Shown: positions 39,001-51,000, numbered from the stretch's first letter. The stretch: 64,000 nucleotides of DNA from Candidatus Krumholzibacteriia bacterium (GCA_041484665.1 JBGPIA010000001.1:704001-768000), one strand, 5' to 3'. Made by a program: the numbers.

Positions 39001-42000
39001 GTTCCCTGGTAATAGGCGCCGCCGGCAGCGGCGTTGCCATAGATTCCGCCGATCGGCGCCGAGTCGGCGGTGAGGCCGTTGTGGGGCCATTCGATGCTTG
39101 GCGCGGTCAGCCCGGCGCCGCCGGGCGGGCACGCACCGCGGGGGGGAACGCCGGCGTACGGGTAGTCCGTCTGCTCGCCTGAGCCCTCGTTGCAGGGCCA
39201 GCCGAAGTTCTCGCCGCCCCTGCAGACGTTGATCTCCTCCCAGCGGTTCCAGCCCACGTCGCCGACGAACAGCGTGCCGGGGCGCGCGTCGGCGGGGTTG
39301 GTCGAGCCGCTGCCACGCCGGATGGTCATGCGGTATGGATTGCGCAGGCCACGGGCCCAGATGCGCGAGATGCTGCTGCGCGGATGGGCGGCGTCGTAGA
39401 AGGGATTGCTCGGGATGCCGTCGCCATTGGCGGGGTTCAGGCGCAGGATCTTGCCCGACAGGCTCCCCGTCCACTGCGAGCGATAGGCGCCGATGTCCTC
39501 GAGGGGATCGCTGCGCCCGGGCAGGAACTGATTGGGCTCGAGCCCGCCGGCGTCGGCGCGGTCGTAGTGAGCACCATCCCCGCAGGAGAACAGCAGCGTG
39601 CCGTCGTCGCCGAACAGCAGCGTTCCGGTGCTGTGCGAGTAGTATGCGGATGTGACGCCCAGCGGCCAGGTCTCTCCCACCAGCACGAGCCGGCTCGCCG
39701 GGTCGGCGATGTAGGGATTCGCGGTGCTCCGGGTATAGCGAACGATGCGCAAGAAGCCGAGCTGGTCCAGGTCCGGGGTGCCGGGATCGGTTTCGACGCT
39801 GTAGGCGAGGTAGAGGTAGCCGTTCGTGGCGTAATACGGGTCGAGCGCGATGCCCAGCATCCCGCGGTCCGCGTTGTCGAGCACCTCGGCCCCGAGGTCC
39901 AGGAATGGCATCGCGCGCCGGGTGTAGGTCGGGGGGCTGCCCCCAGCGGACTCGAGGATCTGCACCTGCCCGCGCTTCTCCGCCACGAAGATGCGTCCGT
40001 CGGGGGCGAAGGCGAGGCCCACGGGATCGACGAACGTGGCCGTTGGCGCGATGTCCATGGCCTGGAAGTTGTTTGGGAAGAGCTGGGCGCGCGCCGGCGC
40101 CGCGGGACCGAGGGCCAGCGCGGCGGTCGCGAGCAACCCCGCCATCGTCCGCCCGAGGGCGGCCCGGCCGGCCTTGCCGCACGGCCGGCGAGCATCACGA
40201 TGCGTGCGATCCACGTTTCCTCCTGCGCCCAGCCGCGTCAGTCTACCCGGACGAGCTTGGCGGATGCGCGCCGTCCATCGGGCAGGGCCGCCACGGCGTA
40301 GTAGACGCCGCGTCCGACGAGCTGGCCCGCGGCATCGCGGCCATCCCACTGCACGACCCCCGGCTCCGCGCGCGCCGTGAAGGCGCGCACCCGGCGGCCA
40401 GCCACGTCGTGGATCACGATCAGCACCAAGTCTTGCTGGCCGCCTGCGGTGGCCAGGGGAGGACCTCCGCCCGGGGCGGCGCCGTTGACCGTGGCCGGTG
40501 CACCGGCCAAGGCGACCCCACCGAGGATCAGGAGCACGGGACCGCGCGACGGATTCGGCTCCGCGCGCAGGCGCAGCGCTGCCGGGCGCAGCGCCACAGG
40601 CGCATCGACCGTTCCGATGACGACCGTGGCCGTCCGCAGCGTGACGCCCGCGATGACGGCGCGGTCCACGTCGCGCAGAACGGCGTCGGTTAGCTGCACC
40701 GTGATCACTCCGTCGGCCAGGCCACGGAACGTCACCATGGCGAGCGTACCCGTAGCCGCGACGCTCGATCCGAAGCCGAGCACGCAGTCCGTGAGCACGT
40801 CGCGCCCCTGGGCGTCGCTCTCGAGGCTGAAGAACGTCGGCTGAGCAGCGCCGGAGAAGAGCGAGCCTTCCGCCGCAGAGACCAGTTCCAGCAGGTTGCG
40901 GTCGTACTGCAGGGTGAGGGCGTAGCACGATAGCCGCGACAGTCTGAGATCCGCCTCGATCGATAGGGTGAATTGCGTAGCGGGCGTCTGCCACATGTTG
41001 AACGGCTCGAAGTGGACGTCCTTGTTCTGGGCGTGCGATGCGGCTGCCGGCAGCGCAAGCGCCCCGGCCAGCAGTCCGATCCGCAGCGCATGCCGAACGC
41101 GCCCGCCGCCGCGTGCGAGCGCCGTTGGCTGATGGAGTGGACGCATCGAGCAACTGCTCCTTCCCATTGGGGACCGCGCCGGCTAGCGCACCAGGGCCAT
41201 GCGCCGCAGGGCCGTCCGCCCTGCCGCCTCGGCGCGGGCCACGTACACGCCGCTGGCGACCGCTCTGCCGAGCTCGTCGGTGCCGTCCCAGACCAGCGCG
41301 TGTACGCCGGCCTCGTGGTGACCGCGCAGCAGCGTCTTGATCCGGCGGCCCGCCAGGTCGTACACGGCCACGTCGACGTCCGAGGGCGCCGCCAGCGTCA
41401 GCTCGAGCGTAGTGCGGGGATTGAACGGGTTGGGGATGTTGGGCGACACGGTGATCGCCGCGCGCGACGGCGGCGGCCGATCGCCACCGCGCAGCGTGAG
41501 CTGCGCGGGCAGCGGCGCGCCGGCGGCGTCGCGCACGTCGATCGCCGCGGTCGCAGCTGCCAGGTCGAACCCAGCTGAGGAACTCAGGATCAGCGTCGCC
41601 GCCAGGCCGTCGCGGCCCAGCCGCGTCCCCGGGCCCAGCAGGGCGATGTCCGCCGCGAGCTCGCCGTCGCGCGCGTACGCCTGCGCGAACGGCCGGCCCG
41701 GACCCTCCGTCAGGGCCGGGCCCGGCACCAGCCCCGGCGTGGGGACGGCGCGCGGTCCCGCGGTCAGGCCCACGTGCAGCGCCTTCACCCGGCCGGCGGC
41801 ACCCTCGACCTCGATCGGGATGCGCAGCTCGCCGTCGGCACCGAGCTGCGGCGGGCCGAGCGTGACGTACACGGGGCTCTCCGCCGCGGCCGAGGCGCCC
41901 GCCGCGAGCTTCTCGACCGTGGTGGGCACCGTCTCCAACAGCGGTCCGCCTGGATCGCTCGTCCCGAACGCCAGCGCGAAGGTCACCAGATCGCCGAAGT

Positions 42001-48000: not shown

Positions 48001-51000
48001 GGTAACGTAGTTCACGGCCCCCATGATCGTGCCCGTTCCGGTGAGGAACACCCCCACCACCCAGAACGTCTGCCCCAGCCCAGGCTGGCCGATCTTGGTA
48101 CTCAACGTGGGATAAGCGGTCCAGCCGCCGGCCGCGGCTCCCTGCGGCACGAACAGCGACACGAACATGACAACGCCCGCCGACAGCGCAAACCAGAACG
48201 AGAGCATGTTCAGCGTCGGGAAGGCCATGTCGCGGGCGCCGATCATGAGTGGGATGCAGAAGTTCCCGAAGCAGCCGATCAGGATCGGCGTGATAGCGAA
48301 GAAGATCATGATCGTGCCGTGCATGGTGAACAGGCTGGCGTAGGCGTCGGGAGGCACCGCTCCGTCGGTGTCCGGGTAGAAGATCTTCCCCACCAGCGGG
48401 ATGGCGTGGCCGGGGTGCGCCACGTTCCAGCGGATGAACATCGCCATCGTCCCGCCCACCAGCAGCCAGAAGAGGCCGAAGAAGAGGAACTGCTTGGCGA
48501 TGACTTTATGGTCCCGGGAGAAGACGTACTTTGCGACGAACGTCGTCGGAGCTGGATGGATGTGATCGTCGCTCATCGCGTCTTCTCCCATTCCCAGCCC
48601 CAGAGGGCCTCGGCGTCCGTCGGATCGAAGCTCGCGACGGCGAAGCGGGCCGCCTCGGCGTACCAGCGCTCGAAGTCCTCCTGGGCCTCGATGGTCATCG
48701 TCCCCCTCATCTTGTAGTGCTCCAGCCCGCACATCTCGGCGCACACGATCTCGTAGCTGCCGGTCTTCACCGGCGTGAAGGTGTAGCGCGTCACGCGGCC
48801 GGGGTTGGCGTCTTGCTTGGTGCGGACGTTGGGCAAGAAGAAGCTGTGGATCACGTCCTTCGCCTTGAGCTGGACCAATACGCGGCGCCCCACCGGTAGG
48901 TGGAGGTCATTGAGCGTGATGATGTCGTCGCCCGTGTTGAACTGCCCGTCGGCGCCGGCGTAACGGATGTTCCATGCCCACTGCTGCGGCATGATCTCCA
49001 CGCGGAAGACTTCACTGCCATCCGTGAAATTCCAGAAGGCCTGCTTGAGGTCGTAGTAGCTGTGCACCAGCAGCGTCCCGTCCACCACAAAGAAGATCGC
49101 CGCCGAGATGGCGGCCGCGATGAGCAGGTCGCGGACGTGGCCGCCTTGGTGGTGGTAGTTCACCTGGTGCCTGCTCCCGGTGCGATGGGCGAGCATGGGC
49201 CAGAAGAGCAGGAAGCACAGGATCAGGAACAGCACAGCCAACATGATCGTGACCGTGTAGAAGAGCGAGTCGACGCGGTGCCCGTCCAGGGAGATGTCCG
49301 GCGCCGGCTTCATCCAATGGAACGGATCGCGCGCCCCGGTGCCATCGGCGAGCGCCAGCGCGGGCAGGGCGATGATGGGCAGCAGGACCAGGACACCGGC
49401 AAGGTACGCGCGCGCGCGGCCTGTCCTCATGGGTGCCTTTCGTCGCGAGCAGCGGCGGAGAGCCCGGTGGGATAGACGAGACGGCCCGCAGCCACCGCCA
49501 CGGGGAGCCCGTCCTCGCTGCGCCTGGTCCGAGCGCGGGTGCGCCGGCGGATCATCAGCACGGCGCCGCCGAACACCCCGAACGGCACGCCGAGGAAGCT
49601 CATGACCACGGGCAGAGTGGTGCGCGCCTTCTGGTCCGACTGGATACACGCCGGACAGGCCAGCGCCAGGCCGGGGCAAAGCAGCAGGGTCAGCAGGCAG
49701 ACGAATAGGGCCGCGCGGCTGCGCGTCGCCACAGAGCATCTCGATGCCGGCAAGCCTGGGTTCCTTTTTCGACAGCAGGGGGGTAGCTGAGGATGGGCGA
49801 ATCTAACCGGCGTCGCGCAGAACTGTCAACTCCCGCAGGCCGGCGCGATCAAACCCGGCGAGTGCGGCCCGGGCGGGGCGGCCGGGCGCGGACGCGGCGC
49901 CGCGGGCGCACGGGAATCGTGCCGCTCTCGTGCCGCTGGCGTTGACACCGGCACGCTCCTCGCGTAACGATTGCCCGCTGTTGTGGGTGCGCGCCCGCCG
50001 CCCCCGGCGGCTCCCCTAGGCGGAACACGCGCAGAAAGGTAGACGCGGTGAGTCAGGCAGAGGCGGCCGCCCCGGTGCGCCATGGTGCGCTCCATCGGCA
50101 GTCGTTCTCCATCGACCGCTACTTCGGGACCGCGACGCCGGGGAAGATCGGGATGTGGATCTTCCTCGTGGCGGACGCCATGGGTTTTGGGGGGCTGCTG
50201 ATCGCCTACGCCAATCTGCGGCGCTCCACGACGTGGCCGAACCCGGCCCACGTCCTGGGCATCCAGATCTCGGGTGTCGCCACCTTCATCCTGATCTGCA
50301 GCAGCGTCTCGATGGTCCTGGCGGTGGCCGCCGCGCAGGCCGCCAACCGCAAGGCGCTGATCCGTTATCTGGCGCTGACCATCCTGGGTGGCCTGGTCTT
50401 CCTGAGCATCCAGGCGACCGAGTACACCAAGCTCGTGCGCGAGGGCATGGGCTTCGCCCACTTCAGCCACGGCACGGGCCTTTTCGGCTCGACGTTCTAC
50501 TCGATCACGGGATTCCACGGGTGCCACGTGTTCTCCGGCGTGATCTACCTGACGGTGATCCTGCTCAAGTCGCTGCGCGGCCGGTACGACGGCGACGCCA
50601 GCCACGTAGAGCTCGTCGGGCTGTTCTGGCACTTCGTGGACCTGATCTGGATCCTCGTCTTCACCTTCGTCTACCTGCTCTAGCGGGGGGCTCCATGTCG
50701 TCGTCGCACAACAAGACGAAACAGTACATCCTGATCTGGGCCGTGCTGGCCGTGCTCACCGTCCTGGAGATCTTGGTGGCGACCCAGCTCCCCCACACCA
50801 CCTCGCGTTGGATGTGCCTGGTGCTGCTGGCGGTCTCGAAGGCCGCGTGCGTGGCCCTCTGGTACATGCACCTCAAGCTGGAGCGCGGCTGGCTGAAGTT
50901 CATCGCGGTGCTGCCCGCCACCGCGGCCGTCTACGCCCTCGTGCTGATGCGCGAGGTCGTGGCGCGCTGAGCGCCAGGGCCTGCGCGCGGCCCCACGGCG

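Follow-up and report, generated by a model that had tools for sequence, protein, structure and literature searches.

A widespread relative of a five-haem sulfur-reducing enzyme, apparently tagged for the cell surface in many bacteria

The core of g00563, a protein encoded on the minus strand (41183..44176) of a 64,000-nucleotide window from a Candidatus Krumholzibacteriia bacterium, is a pentahaem protein of the PHC superfamily related to MccSep/ExtKL and cytochrome c552. Its family, widespread and unstudied, is related to a known five-haem enzyme of sulfur reduction and, judging from sequence, many bacteria appear to tag such proteins for the cell surface. We see roughly even chances that g00563 is a surface oxidoreductase of this superfamily, taking electrons from a redox module and reducing at haem 2 what is presumably a high-potential small molecule.

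Translation of the gene bore out the 997 residues and the five CXXCH motifs (residues 61, 112, 150, 209 and 255) given in the survey's finding; within residues 1-260, even two such motifs occurred in 0/20,000 shuffles. All parts of the gene lie on the minus strand. The sequence opens with a Sec signal peptide (residues 1-27; 44096..44176; cleavage site predicted), so that the mature protein would begin at Gln28; QIVLPGTQP opens the conserved part in close relatives, as in g00563 itself. The five-haem domain (residues 28-321; 43214..44095), with its five CXXCH and with Met85, His195 and His281 as candidate distal ligands, is followed by an Ig-like beta-sandwich of PHC fold (residues 322-545; 42542..43213) that carries His352 and the His414/Asn418 loop. 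Here, too, lies the block called invariant in the survey, GHKLPTGYPEGRRMW, found as described at residues 351-365 (43082..43126). Residues 546-900 (41477..42541) form a stalk with putative FN3-like, dockerin-like and cohesin-like parts, labelled on the basis of the model together with weak fold matches, and residues 907-997 (41186..41458) a T9SS type A/FlgD-Ig C-terminal sorting domain (PF13860, 43 bits). In a Pfam scan FlgD_ig exceeded its cut-off, and two cytochrome models stayed below theirs.

The structure model (pLDDT 95.6) had a single clear fold match, cytochrome c552 (5ZE8; Z 25.5, rmsd 2.7 A, 339 residues aligned over model positions 14-512), the next match having a Z of about 10; Foldseek likewise gave this overall fold, a haem domain combined with an Ig-like sandwich (E 7e-16). 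Identity to c552 was 23% in the structural match, and the profile E value was 1.8e-7. Employing phmmer, we aligned g00563 with MccSep at E 0.0046, Tyr358 falling on Sec325, and a profile-profile comparison of the family with five Sec-type MccSep orthologues gave P 97.9% and E 3.5e-13. In Geobacter sulfurreducens, MccSep/ExtKL is GSU2937-2936 (PDB 9WT8, NCBIfam NF040886; 10.1101/2025.11.18.688581 = PMC13510729), and PHC proteins, with a five-coordinate haem, have already been put in a potentially catalytic class (PMC11976967). The PHC haems I, III, IV and V superimpose on their counterparts in archaeal AvECN (PMC11976967) and a long hairpin follows haem 4 in our model, features that would suit a related filament-forming cytochrome (nanowire) polymerising after export. 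We regard this as scarcely probable, because the bulky N-terminal modules and the membrane or LPS anchors of most members suit a tethered monomer or small oligomer, and MccSep is a tetramer (10.1101/2025.11.18.688581). AvECN was absent from the fold matches listed for the model, which were dominated by one domain.

The invariant block is the counterpart of the MccSep active-site loop, and Tyr358 stands for the catalytic selenocysteine; this correspondence agrees with the survey's caveat, by which the conserved domain may indicate an enzyme. In MccSep the selenocysteine loop extends into the catalytic haem 2's distal pocket, and the variants C239H, U325A and U325C each cripple the enzyme (10.1101/2025.11.18.688581). 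In the g00563 family the haem-2 Cys ligand (MccSep Cys239) is replaced with Glu/Gln (Glu236/Gln237 in g00563, the register being one residue apart between alignments, 236 in one and 237 in another); position 237 aligns with Cys in c552 and with Lys in another subfamily. Met85 replaces a His of MccSep, and the MccSep substrate residues Arg83 and Lys372 correspond to about Phe94 and Asn418, where the alignment is of low confidence.

Conservation was counted over 146 representatives of 36-53% identity. A further 275-row set came from locus searches seeded with parts of the conserved block, which inflates its apparent conservation. Among the representatives, Arg362 was present in 146/146, Glu/Asp360 in 144, Glu/Gln/Asp at 237 in 141, Lys353 in 140, Met85 in 134 and Tyr358 in 134 (Phe in 8 distant members). 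Cys at column 358 occurred in none of the 275, 146 or 97 rows of three sets of relatives, and Cys at 232-240 in 0/275, 0/146 and 1/97. As Sec325, the haem-2 Cys and a His are all replaced, g00563 is very probably not a polysulfide reductase; the absence of Sec/Cys325 and Cys239 and the NF040886 score of 29.8 bits, below the cut-off of 250, speak against a MccSep-type assignment. The rebuilt active site implies that g00563 probably performs a different redox reaction, outside the cell. A shift of MccSep-like sulfur chemistry (polysulfide or sulfide turnover) to the surface would fit the fold and haem count of MccSep, the only member with a shown reaction, the suggested role of c552 in sulfur metabolism and the spare Cys268 of g00563. 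We nevertheless consider it very improbable: both residues whose exchange cripples MccSep are missing, Cys268 is kept in only 69/146 representatives, and true Sec-type MccSep (NF040886 about 560 bits) occurs separately in 5/101 phylum genomes searched, with none in the host genome (G000).

The survey had described g00563 as a multihaem cytochrome placed on the surface by the type IX secretion system, and the signal peptide, the tail and the host translocon and sortase support this reading at the sequence level. The TIGR04183 match holds, marginally (24.8 bits, cut-off 23); two orthologues scored 27.1 and 32.3 bits, Bacteroidota-type relatives scored up to 49.5, and 200 six-frame ORFs of the host genome matched the tail at E<=1e-4. 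In profile searches SprA, PorV and PorU were all over cut-off in the host genome, as was SprA in 41/41 genomes searched. GldN was not found in G000 (93.65% complete), while the control genome G214 gave a match; export would therefore use a divergent system. GldM had no match in G000, but the control had none either. The T9SS motor consists of PorL/M and the ring of PorK/N (PMC8754138). Among 77 tails scanned in relatives, 27 passed TIGR04183, 11 GC-dockerin and 4 MYXO-CTERM, and a T9SS tail was present in only 53/151 closed relatives. Tails interchange among relatives (T9SS, MYXO-CTERM, PEP-CTERM, dockerin-like), and the other sorting tails of relatives reinforce a surface location.

Residues 546-997 recur in the downstream protein g00561 (35% identity, E 1e-44), so g00563 and g00562-g00561 constitute a cassette of secreted proteins. 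g00562 (40238..41098, minus strand; start codon predicted) is a secreted cohesin-like protein with a similar tail (Cohesin E 0.0026 and FlgD_ig E 2.5e-5, both below cut-off); a gene of this type also lies behind the pentahaem gene at loci L002 and L003 and in genome G016. g00561 (33786..40145, minus strand), encoded two genes downstream of g00563, combines by domain scan a secreted GSDH (PQQ-type sugar dehydrogenase) propeller with PKD, two LamG, a cohesin and the tail, and is a candidate electron donor. Its propeller retains the His, Arg-Asn and Glu motifs and is missing what we take to be the late Arg pair of soluble glucose dehydrogenase. A search of five genomes for pqqC found neither the gene nor a control match.

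N-terminal extensions were present in 44/97 long relatives of g00563, and 37 of the 44 were redox modules: 21 GSDH, 11 extra haem and 5 cupredoxin with His-Cys-His-Met ligands. GSDH is fused to the pentahaem protein at 6/160 loci and in 21 of 120 long relatives; these fusions occupy five places on the tree, their three GSDH groups are only 25-34% alike, and the fusion arose at least three separate times. g00561 was the best G000 match of the six fused GSDH domains (318-342 bits vs 133-162 for the next paralogue). A scan of 41+44+22+9 extensions or long proteins turned up no catalytic domain of a peptidase or glycoside hydrolase, even though S8 peptidase matches outnumber GSDH matches in G000 (14 vs 5). 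The link between GSDH and the pentahaem gene is not obligate: a GSDH match was absent at 143/160 loci, and no pentahaem gene lay near the other GSDH orthologues of the phylum (8/8, 9-20 kb fetched). In each of three genomes there were 2-3 close GSDH copies.

The haem-2 site may be shut by His414 or Tyr358. g00563 would then be a non-catalytic surface sink or relay that takes up electrons from a module such as a sugar dehydrogenase, stores them and hands them outward, whether to Fe(III), Mn(IV) and humics or to another enzyme as partner, much as the cytochrome domain does in fungal CDH/PDH. The GSDH, cupredoxin and extra-haem fusions and the carbohydrate-binding modules (malectin, CBM96, LamG) of relatives or the cassette are consistent with such a role, CcPDH (PMC4332668) is a secreted PQQ-to-haem precedent, and His414 adds a fifth candidate ligand that is conserved outside the motifs (264/275 rows, 129/146 representatives). 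However, His414 gives way to Arg, Ser, Asn or Asp and is more variable than His281 (145/146) and His352 (146/146), and the active-site loop bears a cluster of near-invariant residues, Lys, Tyr, Glu and Arg, beyond what a relay would require. We judge a sink or relay unlikely.

The order coxB-coxA-coxC-dihaem cytochrome-SCO1-g00563, all on the minus strand, was borne out. Profile matches identified oxidase subunits II (48573..49430), I (46798..48576) and III (46192..46779); a dihaem cytochrome c with a lipoprotein-like N-terminus (45169..46119), the likely donor to the oxidase, and SCO1/SenC (44354..45112), whose link to g00563 we judged local, follow. From this arrangement the survey had proposed that g00563 oxidises extracellular Fe(II), a reduced mineral or a humic and feeds the aa3 oxidase encoded next to it, after the manner of the rus operon. 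In favour of this, the gap between the SCO1 stop and the g00563 ATG is 177 bp, no terminator-like site was found in it, one promoter-like site precedes the cluster, a His/Met haem suits a high-potential chain, and large multihaem clusters of G000 adjoin unclassified secreted proteins that might be porins. The oxidase link, reported as absent in relatives, is not entirely so: L003 has the full order, G016 has ctaB upstream, and L075 has ctaB/cox3/SCO/DUF420 directly downstream. Over 160 related loci a full oxidase cluster was found at one and part of one at a second, where 0.5-1.5 would be expected by chance under simple assumptions, and oxidase genes adjoined the pentahaem gene in 0/14 further phylum genomes fetched. 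Moreover, two genomes split the parts: G016 keeps the g00563-g00562-g00561 cassette with its best coxA match (38% identical) on another contig, and in G042 the orthologous oxidase cluster (coxA 73%) is retained, but SCO1 is not followed by a pentahaem gene. As the survey had stated, the locus contains no porin or relay gene; MtrB/PioB was not found in G000, no recognised iron oxidiser appeared among 80 genome titles (80 of at least 598), and the oxidase comes with a dihaem cytochrome of its own. The Tahibacter, Dokdonella and Marinicella carriers, listed as cultured, were titled MAGs in the records obtained. The position of g00563 behind the oxidase genes looks incidental, lineage-local and not needed for function, and we consider the Fe(II)- or mineral-fed reading improbable.

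For the surface oxidoreductase reading, we propose the following course. g00563 would be exported by Sec and loaded with haem in the periplasm, as the signal peptide and CXXCH motifs suggest; the folded protein would then pass through the SprA translocon and be anchored on its stalk by PorU, in line with the tail and the genes of the genome. Electrons would enter on the N-terminal, haem-1 side, where redox modules are fused in relatives (GSDH, blue-copper or monohaem domains); here the donor would most likely be the g00561 GSDH propeller or a soluble donor. Following the path in MccSep, they may reach haem 2 by way of haems 1-3-4, of which one is His/Met. Haem 2 has lost the Cys ligand and selenocysteine and would face a conserved pocket of Glu/Gln237, Lys353, Tyr358, Glu360, Arg362 and His414. 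There a high-potential small molecule would be reduced. Ranking candidate substrates, we place H2O2/O2 first, with about half of the weight given to the reading itself, and NO, nitrite or hydroxylamine after them. In a fuller scheme, many bacteria would carry on their surface a modular redox assembly, the bacterial answer to the CDH/PDH-driven oxidative systems of fungi: a GSDH, blue-copper or monohaem module would feed a five-haem enzyme whose Tyr/Glu/Arg haem site activates H2O2/O2, and in this lineage the haem-loaded protein would exit via a T9SS translocon that has no recognisable Gld motor. We put this scheme forward tentatively, as a possibility rather than an expectation.

Among known systems, the rus operon of Acidithiobacillus likewise lines up a cytochrome gene with the genes of an aa3-type oxidase; unlike it, the g00563 locus has no Cyc2-type porin-cytochrome or rusticyanin gene, and its oxidase link is not conserved. 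Dihaem cytochrome c peroxidase, MauG and cytochrome P460 offer a His/Met electron-entry haem, an open haem with distal Glu/Gln, cupredoxin or cytochrome donors and, in MauG, a His/Tyr haem; their fold is unrelated, and the likeness is in chemistry only. With MccSep/ExtKL, g00563 shares the N-terminal five-CXXCH domain, the Ig-like domain and a GH..P.G loop aligning residue for residue. It differs in that Tyr takes the place of Sec325, Glu/Gln that of the Cys239 ligand, Met that of one His and, by low-confidence alignment, Phe and Asn those of Arg83 and Lys372; MccSep is periplasmic, whereas g00563 has a surface-sorting tail and no sulfur-respiration context. The low-potential c552 of Thermochromatium tepidum, the best structural match, differs from g00563 in having a Cys two positions ahead of the conserved Thr, a His in WxxSxH and no sorting tail. 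By description, PHC of cable bacteria, Gsu2801 (PMC11976967) and PtdA (10.1101/2023.11.21.568154) also combine a pentahaem domain with a beta-sandwich at the C-terminus, a proposed catalytic open haem and fused or adjoining redox partners, but they are described as periplasmic and are fused to truncated globins or lie beside a porin. Finally, fungal CcPDH (AA12 + AA8 + CBM1; PMC4332668) and cellobiose dehydrogenase provide an architectural analogy: a secreted PQQ-type propeller, a haem domain and carbohydrate-binding modules. CcPDH has one b-type haem, whereas g00563 has five c-type haems and a putative catalytic site, and the pentahaem protein usually occurs without a propeller.

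The gene g00563 lies at 41183-44176 on the minus strand of the window and encodes a pentahaem protein of 997 amino acids with a signal-peptide-like start. Translation and model searches bore out the survey's finding of a signal peptide, five CXXCH motifs (residues 61, 112, 150, 209 and 255), a conserved block (residues 351-365, GHKLPTGYPEGRRMW) and a T9SS-type tail in this protein. Two CXXCH motifs by chance were obtained in 0 of 20,000 shuffles of its first 260 residues. The tail scored 24.8 bits against TIGR04183 (cut-off 23) and 43 bits against FlgD_ig; against NF040886 (ExtKL) the protein scored 29.8 bits (cut-off 250). 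The host genome carries one copy of the core (residues 28-545), and a fold search with residues 546-997 returned weak multi-domain matches only. Genes for oxidase subunits II, I and III, a dihaem cytochrome and SCO1 are located 5' of g00563 on the same strand, with a gap of 177 bp from the end of SCO1 to the ATG of g00563. On the 3' side there is a gene for a cohesin-like protein (g00562) and then one for a large GSDH-PKD-LamG-cohesin protein (g00561), with tails alike in kind; the end of g00561 is 35% identical to residues 546-997 of g00563. A divergent remainder of the oxidase cluster (49427-56241) consists of a second subunit III, DUF420 and a ctaA-ctaB fusion, then an FdhF/YdeP oxidoreductase; before coxB there are a promoter-like site (49829-49800) and a small ORF with CxxC.

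It had been proposed that the pentahaem protein feeds electrons to the adjacent aa3 oxidase. The same-strand gene order stands, no terminator-like site was found in a search of the SCO1-g00563 gap, and the whole oxidase-to-pentahaem order is kept at one related locus, L003. However, the link is rare. In a set of 160 related loci (80 from metagenomes and 80 from genomes), 86 of which extend 5 kb or more upstream, L003 alone contained coxA, coxB and the dihaem gene; SCO1, cox3, DUF420 and ctaB were found at L003 and also at L075, the latter an independent adjacency of oxidase genes. Chance would account for 0.5-1.5 loci, assuming genomes of 3.5-5.5 Mb that hold one or two clusters of 6 kb. A single one of the 15 related genomes retrieved, G016, had an oxidase-cluster gene: ctaB, on the opposite strand with a ferredoxin-like gene in between. 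The best coxA of G016 (38% identical) is located elsewhere. In G042, an orthologous oxidase cluster is followed by an unrelated gene, so that these two genomes split the two parts. Within the class, just 3 of 208 genomes have a core match at E<=1e-120. More stable than the oxidase link is the g00563-g00562-g00561 unit, found in the host genome, G016, L002 and L003. Delivery of electrons to the neighbouring oxidase is therefore improbable.

Searched against sequences of solved structures, the conserved block of g00563 matched MccSep (9WT8; E 0.0046), the selenocysteine polysulfide reductase of Geobacter sulfurreducens, with Tyr358 falling on the selenocysteine, and a 117-sequence profile matched pentahaem c552 (5ZE8; E 1.8e-7). 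The predicted model of the core (pLDDT 95.6) superimposed on 5ZE8 with Z 25.5 and an rmsd of 2.7 A over 339 residues; the fold rows after 5ZE8 had Z of about 10 and covered the Ig domain only. As no MccSep (9WT8) or AvECN row appeared in the fold-search results, the comparison with MccSep is at the sequence level. Selenocysteine-type MccSep orthologues occur in 5 of 101 genomes of the phylum (L162-L166, one in-frame TGA each), and hhalign aligned the core with these five at a probability of 97.9% (E 3.5e-13). MccSep is described as a periplasmic tetramer with four bis-His haems; its haem 2 is ligated by His122/Cys239, Sec325 extends from the Ig domain to the distal pocket of this haem, electrons probably enter at haem 1, and the C239H, U325A and U325C variants are severely impaired (10.1101/2025.11.18.688581; PMC13510729). 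The PHC family is described as comprising ExtKL, Gsu2801, cable-bacteria proteins and c552 and as potentially catalytic (PMC11976967), with PtdA a further member (10.1101/2023.11.21.568154). A tail-less PHC subfamily of about 450 amino acids, represented by L167 (1072-2424, minus strand), has the loop GHKIPTGSxE, Lys at the haem-2 ligand position and Met in place of the His of WxxSxH; weak ExtKL matches like this one are common in the phylum.

Aligned relatives show a remodelled haem-2 site in this branch. In 275 aligned cores (from 279 with a match), Tyr358, Lys353, Arg362, His281 and His352 were invariant, a conservation that is biased because the block itself had partly seeded the set; position 237 was Glu in 205, Gln in 68 and Asp in 2 of them. 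A set of 146 representatives, gathered with a profile and 36-53% identical to the query, had Tyr358 in 134 and Phe in 8, Glu/Asp360 in 144, Arg362 in 146, Lys353 in 140, Glu/Gln/Asp237 in 141, His414 in 129 and Met85 in 134. Two residues before a conserved Thr, there is Cys in c552 (its haem ligation, as used here, is deduced from the alignment), Lys in the L167 subfamily and Gln237 in g00563; in the hhalign register the MccSep Cys falls on residue 236 of g00563. Cys was absent from position 358 in all three sets (275, 146 and 97 rows) and occurred within 232-240 in 0/275, 0/146 and 1/97. With the selenocysteine and haem-2 Cys positions both altered, g00563 thus belongs to the PHC proteins without being a MccSep; we regard sulfur chemistry as very improbable for it. 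Met85 occupies the position of the His of WxxSxH, and Met85, His195, His281 and His352 are candidate distal ligands of the haems other than haem 2. Cys268 was rejected as a substitute haem ligand, being present in only 69 of the 146 representatives. Haem 2 itself may be left open, or His414 or Tyr358 may close it. That g00563 is a non-catalytic relay appears rather unlikely to us.

Clustering of 7,101 flanking ORFs from the 160 loci yielded no conserved partner. The largest group, a mixed one of secreted proteins with GSDH, spanned 23 loci; ABC ATPases followed with 22, sigma-54/kinase regulators with 19 and histidine kinases with 12. In 7 loci (L099, L102, L119, L133 and L012-L014), the pentahaem gene has as its neighbour a family of secreted proteins without annotation, whose members lie in tandem in records labelled Dokdonella and Tahibacter. 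GSDH, the PQQ-type sugar dehydrogenase domain, matched in 17 of the 160 loci, six times as an N-terminal fusion, and the best host-genome match of these six fused domains was g00561, with a score about twice that of the next. Fusions were present in 6 of 44 long proteins, in none of 16 long representatives initially left out and scanned afterwards, and in 21 of 120 among the long relatives listed. Because 12 fused forms fell in five places of a 225-row FastTree tree and their propellers formed three groups (25-34% alike), at least three fusions look independent. An N-terminal extension was found in 44 of 97 long relatives (23 closest left out): 21 GSDH, 11 with extra haem, 5 cupredoxins with His-Cys-His-Met ligands and 7 other. 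The pentahaem proteins P0164, P0300, P0317, P0349 and P0353 have an N-terminal plastocyanin-like domain with all four type-1 copper ligands together with a T9SS-type tail. The apparent extensions of L051, L058, L083, L110 and L147 were rejected as upstream read-through with no domains. At L159 (2948-11905), an open frame of 2,985 codons contains two tandem GSDH-PKD-pentahaem units with ten CXXCH, which may reflect a duplication or a missing stop.

The link to GSDH does not look obligate: all 8 of the phylum's other GSDH orthologues lacked a pentahaem gene in the 9-20 kb retrieved, and three genomes have several close GSDH copies each. No pqqC was found in five genomes by a search in which no control was positive, and a complex prediction for the core with the g00561 propeller (score 0.00, mark 0.32) was counted for neither side. 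A secreted PQQ-to-haem enzyme is described in fungi (PMC4332668). Elsewhere in the host genome, large multihaem clusters with 42, 31 and 23 motifs at C2:704650-737574 (L234, L235) and C11:110035-116788 (L236) adjoin secreted proteins of 577 and 600 amino acids with no family match and a C-terminal Phe, possibly unrecognised porin-cytochrome conduits.

The T9SS is assigned to the FCB superphylum, with motor, translocon and attachment modules (PMC8754138). In the host genome (93.65% complete), SprA, PorU and eight PorV-family matches were over cut-off, and 200 ORFs matched the g00563 tail; SprA was over cut-off in all 41 genomes searched. GldN was not found in the host genome by a search positive in a control genome, nor was GldM by one in which no control genome was positive. 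SprA, PorV and PorU (C3:123976-130371 and C2:447226-451887) thus coexist with about 200 FlgD-type cargo proteins without detectable GldN/GldM, and across the phylum the system is possibly motor-less or strongly diverged. Assigned by rough rules, the tails of 151 closed relatives were 53 T9SS/FlgD, 41 dockerin-like, 10 FxDGFE, 8 MYXO-like, 1 PEP-like, 1 YLP, 21 other and 16 none; of 77 hand-picked tails, 27 were over cut-off for TIGR04183, 11 for GC-dockerin and 4 for MYXO-CTERM. Surface display thus appears to be a trait of the family, with the T9SS as one of its routes. That g00563 forms a filament is highly improbable. A second tail-bearing haem protein of the host genome (C16:97921-100785; L238:3924-6785, minus strand) combines a beta-propeller with a FlgD-type tail and has two CXXCH 140 residues apart, a spacing which we take to be peroxidase-like.

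At E<=1e-10 the g00563 branch takes in 7,374 of the 8,000 proteins scored; at E<=1e-30 it forms 1,263 clusters (50% identity). The PHC fold and superfamily are already known; this branch is neither modelled nor named in the NCBIfam and Pfam libraries searched, and the ESM Atlas clusters returned consisted of unnamed relatives only. Our literature search, largely outside subscription journals, found nothing on T9SS-exported multihaem or c-type cytochromes, and a term search of a T9SS review (PMC11205867) gave no match for cytochrome, heme or peroxidase. The branch also offers a way to test whether haem-loaded multihaem cytochromes leave the cell by the T9SS.

Now that MccSep is shown to be an enzyme, the PHC fold becomes a scaffold for catalysis, with two positions from which the chemistry can be deduced. 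In the g00563 branch, conserved substitutions alter both, and surface tags differ between phyla; such a branch, large, model-less and variously tagged, lends itself to the search for a new extracellular haem reaction. We give an even chance to g00563 being a surface oxidoreductase for a putative small-molecule substrate of high potential. The protein would be exported in its holo form, electrons would enter near haem 1, one haem would be His/Met-ligated, and a substrate would be reduced at a presumably open haem 2. Peroxidase and N-oxide chemistry is seen in dihaem peroxidases, MauG, P460 and NrfA. By analogy with these, the putative His/Met haem, the candidate cupredoxin or PQQ donors, and a distal Glu/Gln accompanied by Arg, His and Tyr in the g00563 branch would be reminiscent of such chemistry.
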